Source: a virus
Reading direction: 5' to 3' (one strand)
IMG/VR virus record: IMGVR_UViG_3300035698_022898
Location: 22,235 to 86,234 of that record
Length of the DNA stretch: 64,000 nt
The position numbers and the translations under genes were made by a program. Shown piece by piece: positions 14,066 to 59,435 of the stretch. The number at the start of each line of letters is the position of its first letter. Positions within the stretch are counted from its first letter, which is position 1. The notes beneath the pieces are model-generated. The model searched no databases. It had not been told where the DNA came from and worked only from the letters and a program-made list of their open reading frames with translations.

Positions 14066-15127
14066 GTGTCAAATGCCACTAAATTGTTTGATGTAGATAT
14101 CAATAATATAGTAAAGCTTTATGATACTGATAGAGCAAATTTGTCATCTGTAATGGACGGCGTGGTCATAGCTGTTCCTATGCCTGCAGGTTTGATTATT
14201 CTTTTAAATGACAACGCGGCCCCTGCTGGTTGGACTCCGCTTGCGGCTGCGGATGGCCGAATGATCGTAGTGGCTGGAAATACTTATGCAGTGAAAGAGT
14301 CTGGTGGTAGTTGGACCACCGCTTCTCAAGTAACTAGCTCTACAGACGGCACGCATGTCAATCACCCATCTGTGGGCGGCAAAATGGCTGTAGGTGGAAA
14401 ACCAGATACGGATATATATGGAGGAGCTCATTCACACGAAGTAGGTGTAGTACATAAACCTGCGCGTCAAGAATGCCTTCTTATAAAAGCCGATGCTGAA
14501 GAGACCGTGTTGCCAACTAATGCGGTAATGTTAGCAGACCAGGCTATTGGAGCTCTATCCACTATTTTTAATGACGGTCATTATTTGTATGGCGGTACTG
14601 TAGTACAAACAGTGGCTTTGGAAACCAATGAAGATATAGCGGCAGCTGGTACCCACGACCATGTAAAAGACCAATCAGGTACCGGTGGGTATGTTGGTAA
14701 GCTTAGACATATTTCATCTGGATCACATGATAGTGAACACGGAATAACTGGTTTAACAGTCACCGAAAAAATTAAAAAAGTGGTATTGCGGGCGCTTAAT
14801 TGCTCTGGACAAAATTTACAGGCGGATTTAATTGGTCTTTGGGATGGAGCCACCATCCCTTCTGGATGGTCTGAGCTTTCCAGCTTACAAGATTATTTTA
14901 TAGAATTAGATGCCGCAGGGGATGGAACTAAATCCGGTACGAATGAATTGGAATTGTCCGGCGGGATAGACACATATGCTTGGTTACATGCTCATTTGGG
15001 GATAAACGATTCATACTTGAATGCTCCAAGTGGAACAATGACTGCCTCGCATAGCCACACTGTTGCGGGGGATGTGGATTACGTTCCTTCTTATTATGCT
15101 CTTAAATTAATCAAATATACTGGATAG
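14066..15127 (+). CDS. Tail fibre protein with collar-like and HxH metal-binding motifs
   Basis: P.G.I......APAGW and WDGATIPSGW collar motifs; HSH, HDH, HAH, HSH motifs; terminal PSYYALKLIK. Confidence 0.75.
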   Translation: MSNATKLFDVDINNIVKLYDTDRANLSSVMDGVVIAVPMPAGLIILLNDNAAPAGWTPLAAADGRMIVVAGNTYAVKESGGSWTTASQVTSSTDGTHVNHPSVGGKMAVGGKPDTDIYGGAHSHEVGVVHKPARQECLLIKADAEETVLPTNAVMLADQAIGALSTIFNDGHYLYGGTVVQTVALETNEDIAAAGTHDHVKDQSGTGGYVGKLRHISSGSHDSEHGITGLTVTEKIKKVVLRALNCSGQNLQADLIGLWDGATIPSGWSELSSLQDYFIELDAAGDGTKSGTNELELSGGIDTYAWLHAHLGINDSYLNAPSGTMTASHSHTVAGDVDYVPSYYALKLIKYTG

Positions 15128-15139
15128 GAGAGGCACAAC

Positions 15140-15709
15140 ATGGAAAAGTATACTCATGACAAATGGCCAATGTTGTTGGTAGAGAAAGGCACGATTGTTT
15201 GTGTTCGTGATGGTTTAGTTGAGGTTTACTTTGACATAGGAGAATTTAAGGCCTATTCTGGGTATGACCTTACTGATAAAACATACTTGGATTACCAACC
15301 GGATCGTAAGCATCATATAGATGAATCTTTGGGGATAAAAAAGTTCACCGAAAGGATTCCTGCGTACGATTCCATAATTTCTTCTGCCAAAGTTCTTAAA
15401 GAACGCCGTAATGACCCCTTCTTTGGAAAATCCTTAGAGGAGACAAAAGAAATAAAGATCATGCAGATCAAAATGGAAGCATCCGCAAAGCTTAGATTGG
15501 TTTGGGCGGAACACAAACAGACCAACGCTGCCATCGGTGGGATACTAAAACGTGAGGACGAAGTTGCGATTAAGGCAGATATCAAAAAGACAATCCTCGC
15601 AGTGGCTAAAACCAAAACAAAGATTTTAAGTGCCAGAAACCACGAACAAGTTTTAAAGATCGTCCTTTCCGTCTTCACATTGACAAAGAGAGGAATCTCC
15701 AATGATTAA
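15140..15709 (+). CDS. Putative tail fibre chaperone / hypothetical
   Basis: AGGAGAGG RBS; LEETKEIKI..IK pattern downstream of a fibre gene. Confidence 0.5.
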   Translation: MEKYTHDKWPMLLVEKGTIVCVRDGLVEVYFDIGEFKAYSGYDLTDKTYLDYQPDRKHHIDESLGIKKFTERIPAYDSIISSAKVLKERRNDPFFGKSLEETKEIKIMQIKMEASAKLRLVWAEHKQTNAAIGGILKREDEVAIKADIKKTILAVAKTKTKILSARNHEQVLKIVLSVFTLTKRGISND

Positions 15710-44770: not shown

Positions 44771-45688
44771 TTATGAGGTCAACAACTCTTTTTTCAATGA
44801 AATGGCATCTTTAGGGGATAAATCAGCGGGGTCTCCGTCTTCCAATGCTACATTTTCAACATAAGGGATCAAAGAAGAGAGATTTTTAGCCAAGATTCTA
44901 GCTAATTTTTGTGCTTGGGGTTCCCCGTCGAATAGCACAAAAGCTCTTCTCACACCTTTTTTAAATAGTGCATTTACTTGCCCAGAAGTAACCTCAGTAC
45001 CTAAGGTTGATACAGTTCCGTCTCCTAGACGCCACACATCTGTGGGACCTTCTACAAGAATTACCGTATCTTTTACGGTGTCAATATTATATAACCATAA
45101 TCTTGGGTCTAGAGTAACTTCAGTTTTAGGACACATTCTATATCGTTTACTGCTTCGATTTGTGATGTCTCTTGATGTAAACCCCACAATTCTGCCATAC
45201 ATTATAATTGGTATAATAATTCTAAATTTGTAGGTTCCCACAAAGGTGCAGCATTTAATACGGTATTTTTCTCTAAGCTCTTCTACCGAGAAATTTCTCG
45301 TATTAAGATAGTCTGTAAACACTTCGGGGAATTGATCGGTAGATTCAGGAGGTAGTTTAGCTTCTCCTTTCCGGACAATTAGCTCTCGAGCTTTACCTAT
45401 GGAATTGAGGAAGAAAGGGTCTATAAATTCACTGATAATACCGTTTGCTTCCATTCGCGAACAGTTCTCAATCTCCTGTATGAATTGAGTAACCACTCCT
45501 TTCTTCTTACATCTCCAACATTTGAAGTATTTAGATTCGATATTGATACCTAGGTGTGTGCTTCTGTCGTCACACCAAAGGCATTGAGTTCCTATCCACC
45601 CTGGAGAGATATTGGGTCCCTCCAGGGCGTAGTGAATACCTCTATTTTCGAGGTAGTTGATAGTATCAAAAAGCTGGAATTTATTCAT
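44771..45688 (-). CDS. DNA primase (zinc finger plus TOPRIM)
   Basis: C.WC...H...CWRC, RIIIPI, R.I, LVEGPTD, FDG, DP.D. Confidence 0.9.
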   Translation of the reverse strand: MNKFQLFDTINYLENRGIHYALEGPNISPGWIGTQCLWCDDRSTHLGINIESKYFKCWRCKKKGVVTQFIQEIENCSRMEANGIISEFIDPFFLNSIGKARELIVRKGEAKLPPESTDQFPEVFTDYLNTRNFSVEELREKYRIKCCTFVGTYKFRIIIPIIMYGRIVGFTSRDITNRSSKRYRMCPKTEVTLDPRLWLYNIDTVKDTVILVEGPTDVWRLGDGTVSTLGTEVTSGQVNALFKKGVRRAFVLFDGEPQAQKLARILAKNLSSLIPYVENVALEDGDPADLSPKDAISLKKELLTS

Positions 45689-45902
45689 CTAGTAGTCGAT
45701 GACTTTCATTCAGGATTGTTTCCCCAGCATCTTCAAGTTCTCTGGCTTGAATATAGTTCTGGGATCGACTTCTATACATTTCCCCCATTGTGTGAAAGAT
45801 ATCGGATGCCAGTTTCATTAAAGGTTTAATCTCAGAACAGAGAATCTTCTCCCCGACGCGCAGGGAGAGCTCATCTGCCACTTCCTGAGTTGTGTACCGC
45901 AT
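45681..45902 (-). CDS. Hypothetical protein
   Basis: GGAGG RBS; overlaps the primase start. Confidence 0.6.
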   Translation of the reverse strand: MRYTTQEVADELSLRVGEKILCSEIKPLMKLASDIFHTMGEMYRSRSQNYIQARELEDAGETILNESHRLLDE

Positions 45903-45985
45903 CGCCGCCTCCAGGTAAAATGCCTTGCTTTTATGGAAATTTGAAGAATTCGTCTATAGGCCTAATACTAGCATGACCAAAAAAA

Positions 45986-46192
45986 TTAGTCAAGACGTAC
46001 CAGTTCCACGTACTCTTCAATCACAGCAAGGGCTTCCTCGTACCCGCCAGCCGAGAAAGCCCTTTTTTTCATTTCTTCGGAATGTTTCTTTCTTCCATCC
46101 CCACAGAGGGCTTTGGACGCTTTGGCAAGAATCACCATTGTGTTTCCTTCGGGACCATCCGTATCAATTTCCACTACGGGTTTGTTGGGCAT
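45986..46192 (-). CDS. Small protein (GPEGN motif) translationally coupled to tas
   Basis: TAATG overlap at 46194-46190; 68 aa MPNKPVVEIDTDGPEGN...YEEALAVIEEYV. Confidence 0.7.
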   Translation of the reverse strand: MPNKPVVEIDTDGPEGNTMVILAKASKALCGDGRKKHSEEMKKRAFSAGGYEEALAVIEEYVELVRLD

Positions 46193-47184
46193 TATTTGTT
46201 CCTTGTTTTGAGGATGTTGCCTCGGTAATCGTACTTTCCAAAAGGAGAAAGTTCCATTTCCCAAGGCTTGCTGTGTTGTATGTGGAGTTTTTCCTCGGCG
46301 TATTCTCTCGCGACAGGTAGATTTTCTTGTTCCTTCCAGGCAACGTATAGATCGACAAGAAATCTTTTGATCATATATCGCATTGCCATTCGTTGGAGAT
46401 GTTTGTCAGAGGCTTCCAAAAGATCAACCCTGTGTTGGAGACGCATACGGTAGTTATCGTAAATAAGTCGATACTTTCCGCCGCCGATGATTATTCCGCC
46501 CTTGTCTTTGGGCTTATTGTAAACCACTTGTTTCATAAAGCTTGAGGCAAGAACCTCAACCAGTTTGGTTTTCAGCCAGGGATTAAAAGTGATACTATCC
46601 TTTTCCTTAACTTCTCCTTCTTTATCAGTGTACGCTTTTTTTACCAAGTGCTCTTTGCGTTTACTTGTTCCTTTTCCGTCTTTTTCAACGCCAAGACCTG
46701 CGTAAGCCCAGAAACTGGAAGGGTACTGAGCTTTGTAGATGTCCAGTTCACTAATAATAACGCCAGCCATAGCTGGACCTACACCTAGAATCTTGTCTAA
46801 GAAGTTTTTGAAGATAGGGAAGTCGCCGAGAATTTTTTCAATGAGAGCAAAATGTTCCTTCTCAGCTGCAACGAGTTTTTGAAGTTGATGGATAAGAACC
46901 AATTCCGTGTAGCTGGAAATCAGTCCGAAGGGTTTAAACTGTTTGAGTGTGGGGAGTTTGAAACCCTTGGTGTTTTCAATCCCTCCCCCAGTTACAGTGC
47001 GATAGTTTTTTACAAGAAGAGGGAGGAGTTTGCTTGCTTCCAAGGGTTTTTCCCCAGAAGCAATAGCTCTGTCTCTCCAGTTGCTTGCGATTCGATTAGA
47101 CGTTTGCATTCGAAGTTTTTGGACGTCATACGCACCTCTAACCAATGCTCTCAAATTCTCTTTTAAAACCGAATTGCACAACAT
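46192..47184 (-). CDS. tasA: TasA-like Nop-domain RNA-guided protein (IS110/Nop5-related, no nuclease domain)
   Basis: N-terminal coiled coil (LVR..YD.QKLR....NR), GVGP..AGVIISE.DI......SFWAYAGL, FNPWLKTKL, H..RMAMRYMIK.FL.DLY..W. No N-terminal DEDD RuvC and no HNH. AGGAGG RBS directly below the array. Confidence 0.85.
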   Translation of the reverse strand: MLCNSVLKENLRALVRGAYDVQKLRMQTSNRIASNWRDRAIASGEKPLEASKLLPLLVKNYRTVTGGGIENTKGFKLPTLKQFKPFGLISSYTELVLIHQLQKLVAAEKEHFALIEKILGDFPIFKNFLDKILGVGPAMAGVIISELDIYKAQYPSSFWAYAGLGVEKDGKGTSKRKEHLVKKAYTDKEGEVKEKDSITFNPWLKTKLVEVLASSFMKQVVYNKPKDKGGIIIGGGKYRLIYDNYRMRLQHRVDLLEASDKHLQRMAMRYMIKRFLVDLYVAWKEQENLPVAREYAEEKLHIQHSKPWEMELSPFGKYDYRGNILKTRNK

Positions 47185-47202
47185 AAGACTCCTCCTATTT
47201 AG

Positions 47203-47783
47203 ATGTTCGTTTTTGGCTTTTGGGTTTCTCCAGTGAAATGACTCGCTACCAATATTTGGGTTTCTTGGTTTAAGTGGCTCGTTTTTTCTATTTGGGCATC
47301 TTCCACATAAAGACTCACTTGCTTATCTAGGGTTTCTACATCATATTGGTTCGTTTCCGGCACAGGTTTCCTTAGAGAATTTGTCTCGCTCGATAACTAA
47401 GGGTTTCTTGCCCACTCTGGCTCGTTTTATCTACCTGGGTTTCTACGCAATGCTGACTCGCTCCTTGCTACGGGTTACTAGAAACTAATGACTCGATGCC
47501 GCACTTTGGGTTTCTTCGGTCAATGTCTCGCTAGTTAGATTCGGGTTTCTTAGGGGCCGTGGCTCGTTTCTGGGTGTGGTTTACTCTAATCCTTGACTCG
47601 CTGTATGATTTTGGGTGTCTCTTTTTCATCGACTCGCTTTCTGGTTCTGGGTTTCTCCCGATCCTAGGCTCGCTCCACTTTTTTGGGTGTCTTTAAAGAT
47701 ATGGCTCGCTCGTTGAGGATGGGTTACTTGCCTCGGATGGCTCGTTTCACGCTGATAGGGTTTCTTCCCGGCTCCGACTATGT
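47203..47783 (-). ncRNA. TIGR-type dual-repeat guide-RNA array, 16 units of ~36 nt
   Basis: Plus-strand motif TGGGTTTCT (variants) at 47221, 257, 293, 329, 364, 400, 436, 471, 507, 542, 577, 612, 648, 684, 720, 757. It alternates with TGRCTCGYT (variants) at 47239, 275, 311, 347, 382, 418, 454, 489, 524, 560, 594, 630, 666, 702, 738, with degenerate copies at 47203 and 47775. Unique spacers are 8-10 nt, mostly 9. Confidence 0.92.
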
Positions 47784-47814
47784 AAAATTGTCAAAGAACC
47801 TAGCTACTTACTCT

Positions 47815-47887
47815 TTCGTTCTAAGACACGGAACTTTTCAGTGTGACGTAACATACACAAGACAGGCGTTCCATGTCTTAGAACGAA
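47815..47887. repeat. 20-bp inverted repeat in the array leader
   Basis: ttcgttctaagacacggaac (47815-34) / gttccatgtcttagaacgaa (47868-87); the one mismatch is G-U on the minus strand. Confidence 0.88.
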
Positions 47888-47936
47888 GGATTCTACGTAG
47901 GTTTTTCACAGATCCAGCTTCATTATTACAGACTAG

Positions 47937-49433
47937 CTACATCCACCCCCATTCACAGTACATTGCAAGTCTCTGTCCAAAATGAGAGATGAAGTAGGTG
48001 CAATCGAAATCTAAAATGTCAATGATCAGTCCCTCTTCTTTTCCCTCAGCCTTAGTAAGTGATCTACTGGCAGACTGGATTGTAATTATTTCAGACTTAC
48101 CTCCGCCAGCATTTATAACAGCATTAAGAGTAGGTAAGTTGATACCTTCATTCCATATTTTTGTGGCTATGACACAACGATGGTCCCCTTCGATAAGACC
48201 ATGTCTGTATTCCCCTCGATTTTTAGACCGGGTTTCAACTTGACGACGGAGAGCATCCAACTCTTCTAATCGTTTTTCTATTTTATGAATACTTTCTTGG
48301 GCAATACGACCAGACATTCTATGCAGTCGAGTCTTTTGTGTCTCTATCTCTTTTCGGGTGTCTGCATCAATTCCTGCACAGATGAAGGGCACCTTAAGTT
48401 CTGGTGACATCTTTTCAAACATCTGTTCCAGTTTGAATCCGTGCAACACTCTAGTTACCAGGATGAGGACAGTGTTGCCTTCTTCCACAAGCTTTCGAGT
48501 TTCTAATACAATAGCTCTATTCCTGGAATTACTGATAACGATTCCATGATGGTAAGCATCTTGGTAAGCTTTTCGTTCCCTCAATCCAGGATTAGGTGGG
48601 GCTTTGATAAATTTCATTCTTGGTTTAGCTTGTATGTCCATATCCAACGCTTCCTGTGAGGTTATTTTATCTACAATGGGACCTAAGTAGGCTTCCATAG
48701 CCATTAACCCTTCTGGGTCGTTAATCTTAGGAGTTGCTGTCAACCCAATACGAAATTCAGCCAATAGTCTGCTAAGTATCTTAGCGTACTCCCCGTCAAA
48801 CTTGGATACATGGTGACATTCGTCTACTATAACCACATCATATTTGTCGATGTAAGTTGCAGGATCCAGTAAAGCAAAGGATCTGCGGGTGGCAACGAGT
48901 ATTCTTTTGTGTACTTCTCGTTTACCATTTCCTAGCATTCCTACATCTTCTTTGGGGAAGCCCATTTTTATGAGTTCTTCCACAGTCTGCTCGACCAAGT
49001 CTTTACTATGACATAAGAAAAGAAGATTGGATTCAGGGAAACAAGAGAAGATCATTCCAGCCATAACAGTCTTCCCTGTTCTTGGAGGGGACTGAATCAC
49101 ACCCCTACGTGCCTGGAGTATATTGTCAACAAGTTTTGTTTGATGTAGTTGTGGGGTTATGTTGGGTAAATTTACCGGGCAGTGTTGCAAAGAGGGCTCA
49201 AATCCAACAAGTTCTATCTCTTCATCGTGGAGTCGAGCATATTCCATTACACGGTCAAGCAAACCTGTAGGAAATCGGCCATCTTTGACCAAGTTGCAGC
49301 GGTAGGTTTTTCTTTCTTTGCTATATCTTCCAGGTCGCCACATCTCGGTTTCGTAAGATAGACAAGGCTTGAGGAATTTAGCCCCAGCCTTGTCTACCTC
49401 ACAATGAACAGGATGTAAAACTTTTATGATCAT
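47937..49433 (-). CDS. SF2 DNA helicase (UvsW/Res-like)
   Basis: PRTGKT, VDECHH, GLTATP, EGINLP, Q...R.L. Confidence 0.9.
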   Translation of the reverse strand: MIIKVLHPVHCEVDKAGAKFLKPCLSYETEMWRPGRYSKERKTYRCNLVKDGRFPTGLLDRVMEYARLHDEEIELVGFEPSLQHCPVNLPNITPQLHQTKLVDNILQARRGVIQSPPRTGKTVMAGMIFSCFPESNLLFLCHSKDLVEQTVEELIKMGFPKEDVGMLGNGKREVHKRILVATRRSFALLDPATYIDKYDVVIVDECHHVSKFDGEYAKILSRLLAEFRIGLTATPKINDPEGLMAMEAYLGPIVDKITSQEALDMDIQAKPRMKFIKAPPNPGLRERKAYQDAYHHGIVISNSRNRAIVLETRKLVEEGNTVLILVTRVLHGFKLEQMFEKMSPELKVPFICAGIDADTRKEIETQKTRLHRMSGRIAQESIHKIEKRLEELDALRRQVETRSKNRGEYRHGLIEGDHRCVIATKIWNEGINLPTLNAVINAGGGKSEIITIQSASRSLTKAEGKEEGLIIDILDFDCTYFISHFGQRLAMYCEWGWM

Positions 49434-56523: not shown

Positions 56524-59435
56524 CTACATGATTGCAGACATGTCCTGGTGACAAGTCACAATGCATCCGCAATTGGCACACAGGAAGAGAGTTTCTCCCG
56601 GAAAGCCATCTGCGGAGATCAATTTCCGGCACTGACAAGAGGGGCAAGTGTACCGAATGCGGGTATAAGCTTTCTCGAAAGCCCAGAGATTCAATCCGGT
56701 AATGTTTTGGAATTCCTGTTCAGCTTCTTTGAAATCCATGTAATCGGTTCTTACGCCGGCAAAGTTAACCCAGATTGCCAATCCGGCGTGTATAGTGGCT
56801 TCCGCACCGTTTTCAACCAGTGTGTACTCTCCGTACCCATAAGGATCGTGCCTGGGACCCTCAGTTCCTGTCTTACGATATAATCTTCTCTCGTCTAGCA
56901 TAGCGTCCTCCTTATTGGTTGATTAGAGACAACGATCACTCGCTGTCTCTATCAATCAGGAGTTACACAGTTAAGTGATGCTTTACGGGGTATATGTTTC
57001 ACCCATAATCTTACCAGTTTCGATAGCATCTACCATGTCCGACGTAAAGTAGACACCTGAATCTTGCATGTGCCCGTTTACGATAGGAACACAACGATAC
57101 TCGTTCCAATTTGCGTCATGAACTACACGGATAACACCGTCTCCTTTCATCATCGGATACTCTGCAATTTTTCTCATTAGTCGGCAGCCTCCATCGGAAA
57201 GACTTTCAGTCCCGAAAAGCGGGGCTCTTCCCAATTCAACACGGACGCCTTCACGGGAGCAGACATATTGATTTGGTTGGCGATGTTAATCAGTTCTTTA
57301 TCCGTAGTCCGATGCATGTACAGCAGAACAGTACAGTATCCAAACATGTCCCGCTCTGTGATTGACATGGACTTCATGATTGGATTGAAGTCCGTCTTGA
57401 ACAACTTGTGGAACTCTTCGTTGTCCCTGGGCCGTCCCATCATAATGATTTGAATCACACCTTTACTCATAGCGTCCTCCATTTGGGTTAGTCATTAATC
57501 AGAGCGGCGAGTATTGTACGGGGTGGTTTCTACTCGCTTATGACTCGCCGCCCTGTTAATACCTAATCGTGGATAGTAAGTTCGATCAGTTTGTCATGCG
57601 GGATAACGTCTTTGAAAAAGTCGGTCGCAACGATGTAACGTCGGCCGATGTGGTCGATGCAGGCAATGTGTGTATAACCAGCCCAGGCACCTGCTTTTCC
57701 ACCTGGGGTAAGCAGTCTGTGGTGACCTTGATTGTTTCTCTCCCACTTAAAATCCTTCCCCAGTTTCTTGGTTCCTGTGATAAACTTAGGCATTTTTCGT
57801 CCTCCCATATGGGTTTTTGTGCATTTGATTAGTAAATGACGATTCGGCTTATGGAAATGGTAAAGAGACAAACTTTGCTTCTTGGGGCTGTGGGGTAATC
57901 TATCAGGATTTCTGTCACATCCTTCCTGCCCAACAGCTCCATCACAGTACCTATAAGCATACTTGCTTGGTTGATGCCGGTGTGATGCTTTGTGGTCCCA
58001 GAATCAGTACTCCGTATCGAAGTAATATCTAGGGGAAGTGTGTCAGTATCACACAAATGATGTGATCTGCCGGTGATTAGCTCAGTGAGTAAAGCCATGT
58101 CGAGCCCTTTCTCAGTATTCCGACAGAAGGACTCTGTGTTGCACCAGCTACTTGATACTTTGAGTGCTTTCATCACATGCTCCTAAGCGGCGGGGATTGC
58201 TTCCCCGTTTTGGGTGGTCATGCTGCCGTCGGGGTAGACATAGTAATCAGGCTCAAACGGACATTCCTCAGACCAATCCTCAACCCTTGCTCTGAAAGAA
58301 TCTCCCTCATACTTCAATTCTAACGCTTGAAGAGCAAGAGCAGTGGCGCCGACGCTACTGAAATCGTCCCTGGTGAAGTCTCCCCACCAACAGGGAGTCT
58401 TTTCATTCCTGACCTGTATGATGATCTGATACTTTTTCACGGCGTCCTCCATTTGGGTTGTTGTATCAATTGAAGCAACGAGCGGACTCGCTGCTTCTCA
58501 GATACTAATTCGGATTGATGTTGGTCAGATCGTCTACCTGGACATTGCGCTGTCTGTTGTAACGGACTTGGACAGTGGTGTAGCCGCCTTCAATCAGATT
58601 GGAACGGTTGCAAGGCTTTCCATCCCAAGGTGACATAATGTCACAAAGGATGAAATCCTTGTTGGCGTGGAAGGCTGCCAAAGCATCGGCCTTGTTCTTA
58701 TAGTCTCTACCGTAAGCTGGAACAACACTACATCCTCTCGACATGACGTCCTCCTTCAGTTTCCACTACTATACTGTCTTCCAGGTTAGGGAGTCAAGGC
58801 AATAATGCTGCATCCGAAATTGTTACCGTGTACCCGTTATGTTCCCAGCAACTCTTAACGATCTTTGCTGCTCGCATAGTGGCACAGTTGGTGGCTACCT
58901 TTAAACCATCTTTCTCACCAGCAATGTGAACACTACTCATAGAATCTTCTTCTGGGGGGCAACTCTTATCATGCATTAGCTTTTCCCTTGTTAATCGCAA
59001 TTTGGTTTTCGTGTACTACCATCTCCAAGGGGAGCTCACATCCTCCGTCATTGTGATCGGTGATTGCGCCGTCGGGGTAGATATAAAAGTCTTGAATCGG
59101 TATCAGCGTAGTCGTCCAATCCTCCACCTTTGCTCTCCAGAAATCTTCTTCAAAGTCGTCAGAGAGTTGATTCAATTTATCAAGTGTTACCTCCATACCT
59201 AACCAGTCCATCAAATCGTAATTAACGTATCCTAAATTACGATTAGGGTTTCTGACCTGGATAACAACCTGCCAAGTTCTCATCAGCTTCTCCTTTTGGC
59301 GTTTTTGCAGCATTTATCTGAACCTCGCATAAACTCTTTCCTCTCCATACAGTAATAGTCGTATGAGGTTTGGAAAGCGCAAGGAGCAGGTAAACTCTTG
59401 GTACATTCGCTGCACCTTTCGGGCTTCTTACTCAT
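56524..59435 (-). other. Early operon of small hypothetical genes (56524-56901, 56983-57177, 57177-57470, 57563-57808, 57829-58176, 58183-58440, 58505-58744, 58794-58976, 58969-59283, 59283-59435)
   Basis: Strong SD motifs (GGAGGACG four times), stop/start overlaps and intergenic hairpins. Confidence 0.65.

Follow-up and report, generated by a model that had tools for sequence, protein, structure and literature searches.

The dual-repeat array and the tasA gene described here are located in the replication module of a tailed phage, in which a DUF932 gene, a helicase gene (ResIII/DEAD), the array, tasA, two small ORFs, a primase gene and initiator genes are all found on the minus strand. The window, which is the whole stretch of DNA that was analysed (64,000 nucleotides), is part of an 86,234-nt record. 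This phage genome is 98% complete according to CheckV and contains a single array and an intact TasA. The features of the locus, in the direction of the minus strand, are as follows:

47784..47936, minus strand: intergenic leader from the helicase stop codon to the array, read from the sequence
47203..47783, minus strand: dual-repeat TIGR array of 16 units, from sequence reading and repeat scoring
47775..47783, minus strand: first edge repeat with a degenerate 5' half (ACATAGTCG), read from the sequence; unit 1 scores 23.6 bits
47203..47211, minus strand: terminal edge repeat with a degenerate 3' half (AACGAACAT), read from the sequence
47191..47196, minus strand: Shine-Dalgarno AGGAGG, read from the sequence, 6 nt before the ATG
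46192..47184, minus strand: tasA, encoding a nuclease-less TIGR-associated protein of 330 aa with a Nop domain, from homology searches
45986..46192, minus strand: 68-aa ORF of unknown function, whose ATG overlaps the tasA stop codon (TAATG)

[quoted passage not shown] A dual-repeat array is defined by the alternation, over many units, of two distinct 8-12-nt repeats separated by spacers of about 9 nt. In published arrays the first edge repeat is truncated on its 5' side and the last one on its 3' side, and a terminator "typically" follows (Faure 2025, PMC12045711). The ribonucleoproteins of TasA, TasR and TasH contain 36-nt RNAs with both ends in the middle of edge repeats, and the two spacers of such a tigRNA target opposite strands in tandem (Faure 2025, PMC12045711). 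For TasA, transcriptional repression without cleavage has been described (Xu 2026 preprint). The preliminary description of this DNA recognized a TIGR-type array next to a nuclease-less TasA-like protein and stated that the class is not new. Both statements hold, as the locus matches the published definition and the published systems (Faure 2025, PMC12045711; Xu 2026 preprint), and the protein has TasR and TasH as its only homologs among solved structures. The proposal of binding or repression without cleavage, also made in the preliminary description, has published backing in other TasA proteins (Xu 2026 preprint).

Each unit of the array consists of the edge repeat A[G/A]CGAG[C/T]CA, spacer A, the loop repeat AGAAACCCA and spacer B, with a period of 34-37 nt. 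The successive units measure 37, 36, 36, 36, 36, 34, 36, 35, 35, 36, 36, 35, 36, 36, 36 and 36 nt. Both repeats are 9 nt long, and the 32 spacers, each of which is different, are 9 nt long in 26 cases, 8 nt in five and 10 nt in one according to our parse. This unit-by-unit reading agrees with the number of units and spacers, the period and the strand given in the preliminary description, whose four example spacer pairs are units 1-4. Positions A1, G2, C7 and C8 of the loop repeat are invariant in all 16 copies, as are positions A1, G4, A5 and C8 of the edge repeat in 15 of 15 copies. In terms of box D and box C, the loop repeat reads AG...CC[A] and the edge repeat A[G/A]...[C/T]CA. The variant of the terminal edge repeat is also found in the array of a related locus, L002 (AGCGAACAT).

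Matches to the repeats are concentrated in the 0.58-kb array. With at most one mismatch, 12 of the 35 matches to the loop consensus in the window and 15 of the 35 matches to the edge consensus fall inside it, all on the minus strand. In a score based on three consecutive repeats, using a matrix trained on the 16 units themselves, these units reach 23.6-45.4 bits, while no other place in the 86-kb genome scores above 13.9 and five shuffles reach at most 13.5; independent support comes from the arrays in other genomes. The weaker units are found at the ends of the array, namely unit 1 (23.6 bits) and units 12-14 and 16 (32.5-34.0 bits). By the same score, no dispersed or orphan unit above chance level is present outside the array in the 86-kb genome, and a candidate unit at 57505-57549 was rejected with 7.7 bits, which is not above chance. 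Taken together, the repeat matches, the scores and the arrays in other genomes confirm that the array is not a product of chance. The array RNA is predicted to be less structured than all of 100 shuffles (z +3.1), which fits the expectation for single-stranded guides.

The preliminary description placed the end of the array 18 nt from the ATG, and this is the case, with the last edge repeat at 47211-47203 and the ATG at 47184. These 18 nt include the Shine-Dalgarno sequence. A terminator after the array is absent because tasA follows directly. With only this short stretch between the last repeat and the start codon, the tasA mRNA probably carries the array as its 5' leader. On the other side of the array, the intergenic leader contains a hairpin of 20 bp, in which about 47815-47834 is paired with 47868-47887, and its RNA has a predicted fold of -51.2 kcal/mol (z -6.0) that is reached by none of 200 shuffles. 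Searching Rfam over 45000-49000 gave nothing significant, the best match for the leader having an E-value of 0.15, and no sigma-70-like promoter was found upstream of the array on the same strand. An ATTTT..CATAG motif that had seemed to be shared with other loci was rejected, since it was observed two times compared to a shuffle mean of 1.6, and it is part of the repeat-spacer layout.

The TasA protein has a weak match to Transposase_20 in Pfam (E 0.033) as its only match, without any nuclease domain, and matches PHROG 4285 (1e-28). Using the single sequence as a query against the PDB, the TasR structure 9MTY was found at 3e-8 and TasH at 0.032. A profile of 39 family members matched TasR 9MTY (the TasR ribonucleoprotein model of Faure 2025, PMC12045711) with an E-value of 9.8e-22 and TasH (21kl/9w03) with 7.2e-17, and these two were the only matches up to E 10 among 177,635 distinct sequences. 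The alignment with TasR begins at TasR residue 123, past the N-terminal domain of TasR. Therefore, the earlier observation that the protein lacks RuvC and HNH is supported by both Pfam and the TasR alignment. There is also no room for a split N-terminal nuclease domain because the array lies directly upstream of tasA. An ESM Atlas model of exactly this sequence has a pTM of 0.76. Viral Transposase_20 clusters (TM 0.80) and an IS110 transposase cluster (TM 0.57) are similar to it in structure, and this serves as a lead, which is different from a comparison of the model with 9MTY or 9W03.

In SpTasH, Y289 and H296 are the catalytic residues for processing (PMC13421893). In the TasA studied here, Y295 aligns with Y289 and is invariant in all 39 sequences, and H301 aligns with H296. 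A second histidine, H304, is shared by at least 90% of the family, and its distance from the conserved KLG is greater by two residues than that of H296 in SpTasH. At the sequence level, a C-terminal Tyr/His processing dyad is thus retained, with H301 or H304 as the putative catalytic histidine. In addition, 1204 homologs of TasA were found, the closest of which are only about 50% identical, and TasA departs from the consensus at 15 alignment positions where the other 38 sequences show at least 90% conservation. These departures include H264Q, G301H, D165G and R173T, and H264Q alters an H-x-H motif that is also seen in the TasR and TasH alignments. Judged from these alignments, this TasA is a divergent member of the family.

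Such divergence could also be read as decay, in which a real family member is processing-defective and its guides are no longer matured or used. The altered conserved columns, with H264Q and G301H next to the dyad region, the distance to the closest relatives, the weaker repeats at both ends of the array and the absence of targets in the searches described below are in line with this reading. However, the tasA ORF is intact and full length, there is a strong Shine-Dalgarno sequence in front of it, and its product can be aligned with the family over the entire length. The invariant box positions are kept in all 16 units, and all 32 invariant columns of the 39-sequence alignment are kept as well, including Y295, which is necessarily so since this TasA is among the 39. 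The same sequence is also present unchanged in pieces from four salt-lake runs. A decaying system is therefore considered quite unlikely.

Viral relatives were identified through the protein, and all six carry adjacent, co-oriented dual-repeat arrays, with repeats that change with protein distance. The same repeat type as in this phage was observed in at least 119 viral and at least 36 prokaryotic stretches. In 84 of the 85 loci with a TasA homolog and at least one unit, every unit has the same orientation as tas (1411 of 1440 units), and of the 40 loci in which units lie upstream, 31 have the end of their last unit between -37 and +76 nt from the inferred start codon. The preliminary description had pointed out that both repeats start with A, where published repeats start with U. 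This is true and common across the relatives, so that the A-initial repeats are, as far as the compared sequences go, a widespread variant of the clade and no peculiarity of this phage. Box motifs have been described to diverge yet covary between edge and loop repeats (Faure 2025, PMC12045711), and the presence of AG instead of UG as box D in both repeats fits this rule.

The distribution of the repeats also bears on the question whether they are guides at all. The array lies between the helicase and primase genes, where DNA-level iterons or an origin could be expected, its 36-nt period is a multiple of three, as in a repeat protein, and the family is labelled "transposase" in PHROG and Pfam, which would suggest cargo of an IS110-type transposase. 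Against this, the same repeats accompany tas homologs in unrelated contexts with the orientation described above, and Tas proteins are the only solved relatives. A translated 12-aa repeat protein, which had been weighed in the preliminary description, is not encoded here, as each of the six frames of the array contains 7-11 stop codons, the longest open stretch is 83 codons and unit lengths of 34-37 nt break any frame. The IS110 DEDD domain (PF01548) was detected neither in TasA nor in the whole virus record, using a search that was positive in 6 of 14 genomes as a control, which argues against transposase cargo. Repeats with a role other than that of guides are thus extremely unlikely.

The surroundings of tasA were examined for partners. 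The 68-aa ORF that is translationally coupled to tasA matches PHROG 1933 (unknown function) at 1e-9 and nothing in Pfam. A homolog of it was not found in loci L001-L006, indicating that it is not a conserved partner. No relatives of the helicase were found in viral contigs, and blastn of 8 kb against phage records gave nothing. The location inside a replication module, beside a ResIII/DEAD helicase and a primase, and the coupled small ORF would be compatible with TasA being a targeting module for an effector in trans, such as a nuclease of the phage or host, the adjacent helicase or an integrase, with cleavage, recombination or replication control as the outcome in place of simple repression. 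Integrase assistance and an association with ParB have also been raised as possibilities in the literature (Faure 2025 discussion, PMC12045711). However, none of the neighbouring genes in the window is adjacent to tas in L001-L006, where L002, for example, has other neighbours such as RecT, and no nuclease family was detected with Pfam or PHROG in the two small ORFs downstream of tasA. An effector in trans is therefore regarded as very unlikely.

Several characterized systems can be compared with this locus. By its published description, FpTIGR-TasA of Flavonifractor plautii (PMC12045711) is likewise a solo nuclease-less Nop-domain protein in a phage without conserved partners, and its array has alternating edge and loop repeats of about 9 nt, 9-nt spacers, a period of about 36 nt and truncated terminal edge repeats. 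The two differ in box D, which is UG in FpTIGR and AG (AR in the edge repeat) here, and in the position of the array, which here is found upstream of the gene, next to its start codon and with no terminator at the end. The SpTIGR-TasH system of Salicola phage CGphi29 (9W03, 21kl; PMC13421893) shares a homologous Nop domain, a dual-repeat array and the Y289/H296 region that aligns with Y295 and H301/H304. In contrast to this TasA, SpTasH has an N-terminal HNH nuclease and cuts DNA, and the variable sequence of SpTIGR is 16 nt compared to about 18 nt here. TaTasR (9MTY), which binds a 36-nt tigRNA as a dimer (Faure 2025, PMC12045711), is the best match among solved structures, and its coiled-coil/Nop core is presumably shared by the TasA studied here. 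TaTasR differs in its N-terminal RuvC domain of about 120 aa, which is absent here, and in its UG...CCA repeats.

The nuclease-less TasA proteins MbTasA, BlTasA and PlTasA belong to stem-loop systems (10.64898/2026.09.09.750476; 10.64898/2026.08.11.744272), and it has been demonstrated for stem-loop TasA proteins that they bind DNA under RNA guidance and repress transcription in a reversible way. The guides of BlTasA and PlTasA are framed by hairpins, whereas plain dual repeats are present here. The TasA that was shown to repress (MbTasA) and the one that was solved (PlTasA) both come from studies of stem-loop systems, and for dual-repeat TasA the published function is RNA binding (FpTasA) only. 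Among 50,697 phage records, three records from two phages contain a TasA homolog, the best of which is ORF034 of Ralstonia phage phiRSL1, annotated as "transposase", with 32% identity over 90% of the query. This gene is followed by about 1.3 kb of AGTGAGYCA / AGACACCCA-type dual repeats. Different from the phage studied here, phiRSL1 is a 231-kb jumbo phage with a much longer array on the downstream side of the gene, in which the repeats are more degenerate; its locus is not mentioned in the main text of Faure 2025 (PMC12045711). More distantly, the Nop/Transposase_20 RNA-binding core indicates kinship to the IS110 recombinases and to Nop5 of the box C/D snoRNP. The IS110 bridge-RNA recombinases differ by their DEDD catalytic domain and Nop5 by its fibrillarin partner, both absent from this record, in which fibrillarin (PF01269) was not detected using a search that was positive in 5 of 14 genomes as a control.

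Based on the anatomy of the array, the homology of the protein to TasR and TasH, the lack of a nuclease domain, the dyad and the co-oriented arrays in relatives, the locus is very probably a dual-repeat TIGR-TasA system of a tailed phage, which would produce processed guides and use them to bind and block DNA without cleavage. The steps proposed here, from transcription and processing to the binding of DNA and repression, are modelled on published findings for other Tas proteins. The 581-nt array would be transcribed in the direction of tasA and would most likely form the 5' leader of its mRNA. Dimers of TasA may then attach to the edge and loop repeats at their box D (AG) and box C (CCA/YCA) ends, after which the C-terminal Tyr/His dyad would cut within each edge repeat, resulting in up to 16 tigRNAs of 34-37 nt. 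Each ribonucleoprotein is expected to read a DNA site of about 18 bp, with spacer A on one strand and spacer B on the adjacent stretch of the other, so that the predicted target site is 5'-spacer A followed by the reverse complement of spacer B. The nuclease-less complex could bind and bend the DNA, thereby blocking transcription or replication at the site.

Searches with 18-mers built from both spacers, as outlined in the preliminary description, were performed on the phage genome with all guides and on viral contigs with 4 of the 16, and gave no target above chance. In the 86,234-nt record, no site with at most one mismatch was found for the 16 guides in both spacer orders and with gaps of 0-2. 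At two mismatches there was one site, which has a 2-nt gap and a spacer order that does not fit the geometry, and at three mismatches the counts equalled those of shuffled-spacer controls. The guides of units 2, 7, 10 and 11 were compared with viral contigs, using the order derived from the 8-nt 3' overhang and the C-5 rule. Unit 2 matched three stretches, representing two independent viruses, with gaps of 1 and 2, and units 7 and 10 had no matches. The guide of unit 11 matched 16 stretches, all with a 2-nt gap; 14 of these are at one site, where the representative matches lambdoid E. coli phages in the region of the large terminase subunit, and the remaining two are in another group. With these four guides, no gapless match and no contig matched by two guides was observed, and the matches in viral contigs are interpreted as a result of chance and database redundancy.

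Targeting between loci was assessed for 159 sequences, namely this phage and 158 loci, whose 1,783 distinct 9+9 guides were compared with 1,517,156 bases. In the correct order there were no exact sites and five with one mismatch, compared to 3.4 in a re-paired control, and in the wrong order one exact site and ten with one mismatch, compared to 6.6 in the control. Thus, guides with this type of repeat show no cross-targeting above chance within 1.5 Mb of their neighbourhoods, and this phage has no guide in common with the other loci in the 159 sequences.

The locus is one clean example of a published system and not a new kind. A tentative, on balance rather unlikely, proposal is that the 16 guides form a multiplex silencing programme of the phage against its salt-lake host, directed at genes on the chromosome or at mobile elements that reside there, with a self-limiting loop between guides and TasA. 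Because the array would be the 5' leader of the tasA mRNA, the Tyr/His RNase of TasA is proposed to trim its own message, and guide production and TasA synthesis would thereby limit themselves. If true, natural targets and such a feedback would be the first for any dual-repeat TasA. The lack of self-matches and cross-targeting and the chance level of database matches to the 18-nt sites are useful negative results. Since the phage recurs in salt-lake metagenomes, its host and targets might be found there. Together with an array that abuts the start codon and a nearly whole phage genome, this makes the locus a compact test case for two questions that are open in the published papers, namely what the natural targets of TIGR spacers are and whether arrays and tas genes are co-transcribed.

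The locus lies within a replication module, with its genes all on the minus strand, in a linear IMG/VR virus record of 86,234 nt (GC 43.5%, CheckV completeness 98), of which the window covers bases 22235-86234. Its features are as follows.

Gene order, minus strand: DUF932, ResIII/DEAD helicase, array, tasA, two small ORFs, DnaG-type primase, two initiator-like genes
Within 47784-47936, minus strand: hairpin with a 20-bp stem, after the helicase stop codon and ahead of the array
47783-47203, minus strand: dual-repeat array of 16 head-to-tail units, from sequence reading
46192-47184, minus strand: tasA, a 330-aa ORF
45986-46192, minus strand: 68-aa ORF sharing its first base with the end of the tasA stop codon (TAATG); PHROG 1933, function unassigned

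The preliminary description had placed a 16-unit dual-repeat array 18 nt from the start codon of this ORF, and the counts of units, spacers and repeats on the minus strand bear this out. [quoted passage not shown] Edge repeats follow the consensus A[G/A]CGAG[C/T]CA, A1, G4, A5 and C8 being present in 15/15 copies; for loop repeats it is AGAAACCCA, and A1, G2, C7 and C8 are present in 16/16. Degeneracy affects the 5' half of the first edge repeat and the 3' half of the last, AACGAACAT; the 18 nt between this last repeat and the ATG (47184) contain AGGAGG. Among the 9-nt spacers only, A is found in spacer B at position 1 in 8/12 and at position 2 in 9/12, and in spacer A at position 9 in 8/14; this may mean that the repeats reach into the nominal spacers, or that some constraint acts on these positions.

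Allowing at most one mismatch, the loop consensus is matched 35 times in the window; 12 of these matches fall inside the 0.58 kb of the array, as do 15 of the 35 edge consensus matches, all on the minus strand. On an edge-loop-edge matrix, the 16 units score 23.6-45.4 bits, compared with 13.9 for the best site elsewhere in the genome and a five-shuffle maximum of 13.5. This matrix was trained on the array's own units, and the independent evidence is therefore the conservation of the repeats in other genomes. A candidate orphan tigRNA-like unit (57505-57549, minus strand) was rejected, as its 7.7 bits are within the range of the shuffle maxima (4.0-13.5) and below all real units. Stop codons, 7-11 per reading frame across the array, speak against a translated repeat protein, which the preliminary description named among the outcomes that would refute a guide array. 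Compared with 100 dinucleotide shuffles, the array RNA has the poorest fold (z +3.1), which fits single-stranded guides. The hairpin region at 47784-47936 folds at -51.2 kcal/mol (z -6.0), with 0/200 shuffles as good; it has no U-tract behind it and no significant Rfam family match, and could be a processing element, a stability element or a protein-binding palindrome.

The only Pfam match of the 330-aa ORF, Transposase_20, is sub-threshold (E 0.033), and PHROGs gives phrog_4285, annotated as 'transposase' (1e-28). A single-sequence search of all PDB sequences retrieved 9MTY (E 3e-8), which is the TasR RNP of Faure 2025 (PMC12045711), and TasH chains (E 0.032). With a profile of the ORF and 38 relatives, these matches reached 9.8e-22 and 7.2e-17, respectively, and no other match up to E 10 was observed among 177,635 distinct PDB sequences. 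The alignment begins at TasR residue 123, indicating that the RuvC part of TasR has no counterpart in the phage protein, and neither an IS110 DEDD domain nor fibrillarin was found in the whole 86,234-nt record. In SpTasH, Y289 and H296 are reported as the pre-tigRNA cleavage residues (Xu 2026, 10.64898/2026.09.09.750476; NAR 2026), and these align with Y295 and H301 of the phage TasA. Y295 is unchanged throughout the 39-sequence alignment, in which a further histidine, H304, is conserved in at least 90%. The array anatomy and the PDB matches to TasR and TasH only thus support the earlier identification of a dual-repeat TIGR array with a nuclease-less TasA.

The phage TasA deviates from a fully typical family member. 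Of the columns with at least 90% conservation among the other 38 sequences, 15 are off-consensus in it, including G301H and H264Q, the latter in an H-x-H motif also seen in the TasR and TasH alignments, and it carries a short insertion within the chain and an additional C-terminal stretch of about 22 residues. Homologues number 1204 proteins at E <=0.001 among 4146 candidates, the closest being only about 50% identical. As a lead only, the model of the exact sequence in the ESM Atlas (pTM 0.76) lies nearest in structure to viral Transposase_20 clusters (TM 0.80) and, at TM 0.57, to a cluster of IS110 transposases.

According to Faure 2025 (PMC12045711), TasA, TasR and TasH RNPs hold 36-nt RNAs running from mid-edge to mid-edge, and the two spacers pair with adjacent 9-bp stretches on opposite strands. 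Dual-repeat Tas proteins have been described to cleave the precursor by their own Y/H dyad (NAR 2026), and nuclease-free TasA to repress transcription reversibly (Xu 2026, 10.64898/2026.09.09.750476). By extension from this work, as many as 16 tigRNAs, each 34-37 nt long, would come from the array and direct a TasA dimer to 18-bp sites, which would be left uncut. In the predicted site, spacer A comes first and the reverse complement of spacer B second, an order based on the 8-nt 3' overhang and the C-5 rule. Co-transcription is, according to Xu 2026 (10.64898/2026.09.09.750476), not decidable from sequence. Since only an 18-nt Shine-Dalgarno stretch, in which no promoter-like site was found, separates the array from the ATG, the array would most simply be the 5' leader of the tasA mRNA. 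Among the matches listed, the last upstream unit is located -37 to +76 nt from the crudely inferred start codon in 31 of the 40 relatives that have upstream units. A leader position would, in our reading, couple guide processing with the tasA message.

A protein-based scan of viral contigs yielded six loci with 33-48% identity to the phage TasA, and a dual-repeat array adjoins the gene in 6/6. The repeats of the two closest (L001, L002) and of L006 are nearly those of the phage; more distant loci have diverged repeats, e.g. AATGTATCA or AGTGAATAA. None of the window's neighbouring genes recurs in these six loci, and the 68-aa ORF is not beside tas in any of them. A strict repeat-type pattern (edge, 9 nt, loop, 9 nt, half edge) was found in 36 stretches of prokaryotic genome assemblies, from many bacterial and archaeal phyla and nearly all MAGs, and in at least 119 stretches of viral contigs. 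The A-initial repeats pointed out in the preliminary description are thus confirmed and, to judge from these matches, are a widespread clade variant. Among the matches listed, a TasA homologue is also encoded in 82/155 strict-pattern stretches, and in 84 of the 85 loci with a homologue and at least one unit, all units are on the tas strand (1411/1440 units co-oriented). Of these listed loci, 18 have arrays upstream only, 44 downstream only and 23 on either side of the gene.

The 36 genome contigs (L027-L062) carry the identical repeat type in bins as different as Saccharibacteria, Dehalococcoidia, Planctomycetota, Marinobacter, Altiarchaeales, Bathyarchaeota and Halobacteriota; as nearly all are MAGs, viral contigs may be mis-binned with cellular genomes. 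One of these, from a Saccharibacteria MAG (L051, CAZCSJ010000002.1), has eight strict-pattern matches over about 5 kb of one 8-kb stretch, one on the plus and seven on the minus strand, which indicates arrays that are dispersed and lie in both orientations. Four salt-lake metagenome runs have contigs with exact pieces of 151-431 nt; one of these runs may represent the sample of origin, and the studies may form a single campaign. In one run (X2; records 11, 12 and 14; window 47251-47728), contigs match only single units, with 8-9 differences, and run on into different sequence that has the edge repeat in reverse complement; one such contig is 1184 nt long at depth 22. That lake therefore harbours further TIGR arrays of the phage's repeat type.

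The 18-mer guide search proposed in the preliminary description gave no sites beyond the shuffled-spacer level for the 16 guides in the phage's own 86 kb. For four of the 16 guides searched against viral contigs, two had no matches and two had gapped matches only, one of them to lambdoid E. coli phage terminase genes over 14 near-identical contigs, and we read these matches as chance. The 1,783 same-type guides from 159 sequences, among the matches listed, showed no correct-order excess in 1.5 Mb including the phage. Spacer GC (42.3%) is near that of the phage itself.

The class had been described as already known, and rightly so: the phage locus is one more member of the published TIGR-Tas family, for which 20,096 tas loci and 4,126 annotated dual-repeat arrays are reported (Xu 2026, 10.64898/2026.09.09.750476). 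Natural TIGR targets are left open by both Faure 2025 (PMC12045711) and Xu 2026 (10.64898/2026.09.09.750476). Among 50,697 phage records, a TasA homologue was found in only two phages, a Microcystis phage and Ralstonia phage phiRSL1 (two records). In phiRSL1 (NC_010811.2, ~14288-15588; L010 3540-4840), about 1.3 kb of like dual-repeat units, a region with no annotated feature, comes after ORF034, which is annotated as 'transposase' and is 32% identical to the phage TasA. The cultured pair of phiRSL1 and its host could help locate natural TIGR targets.
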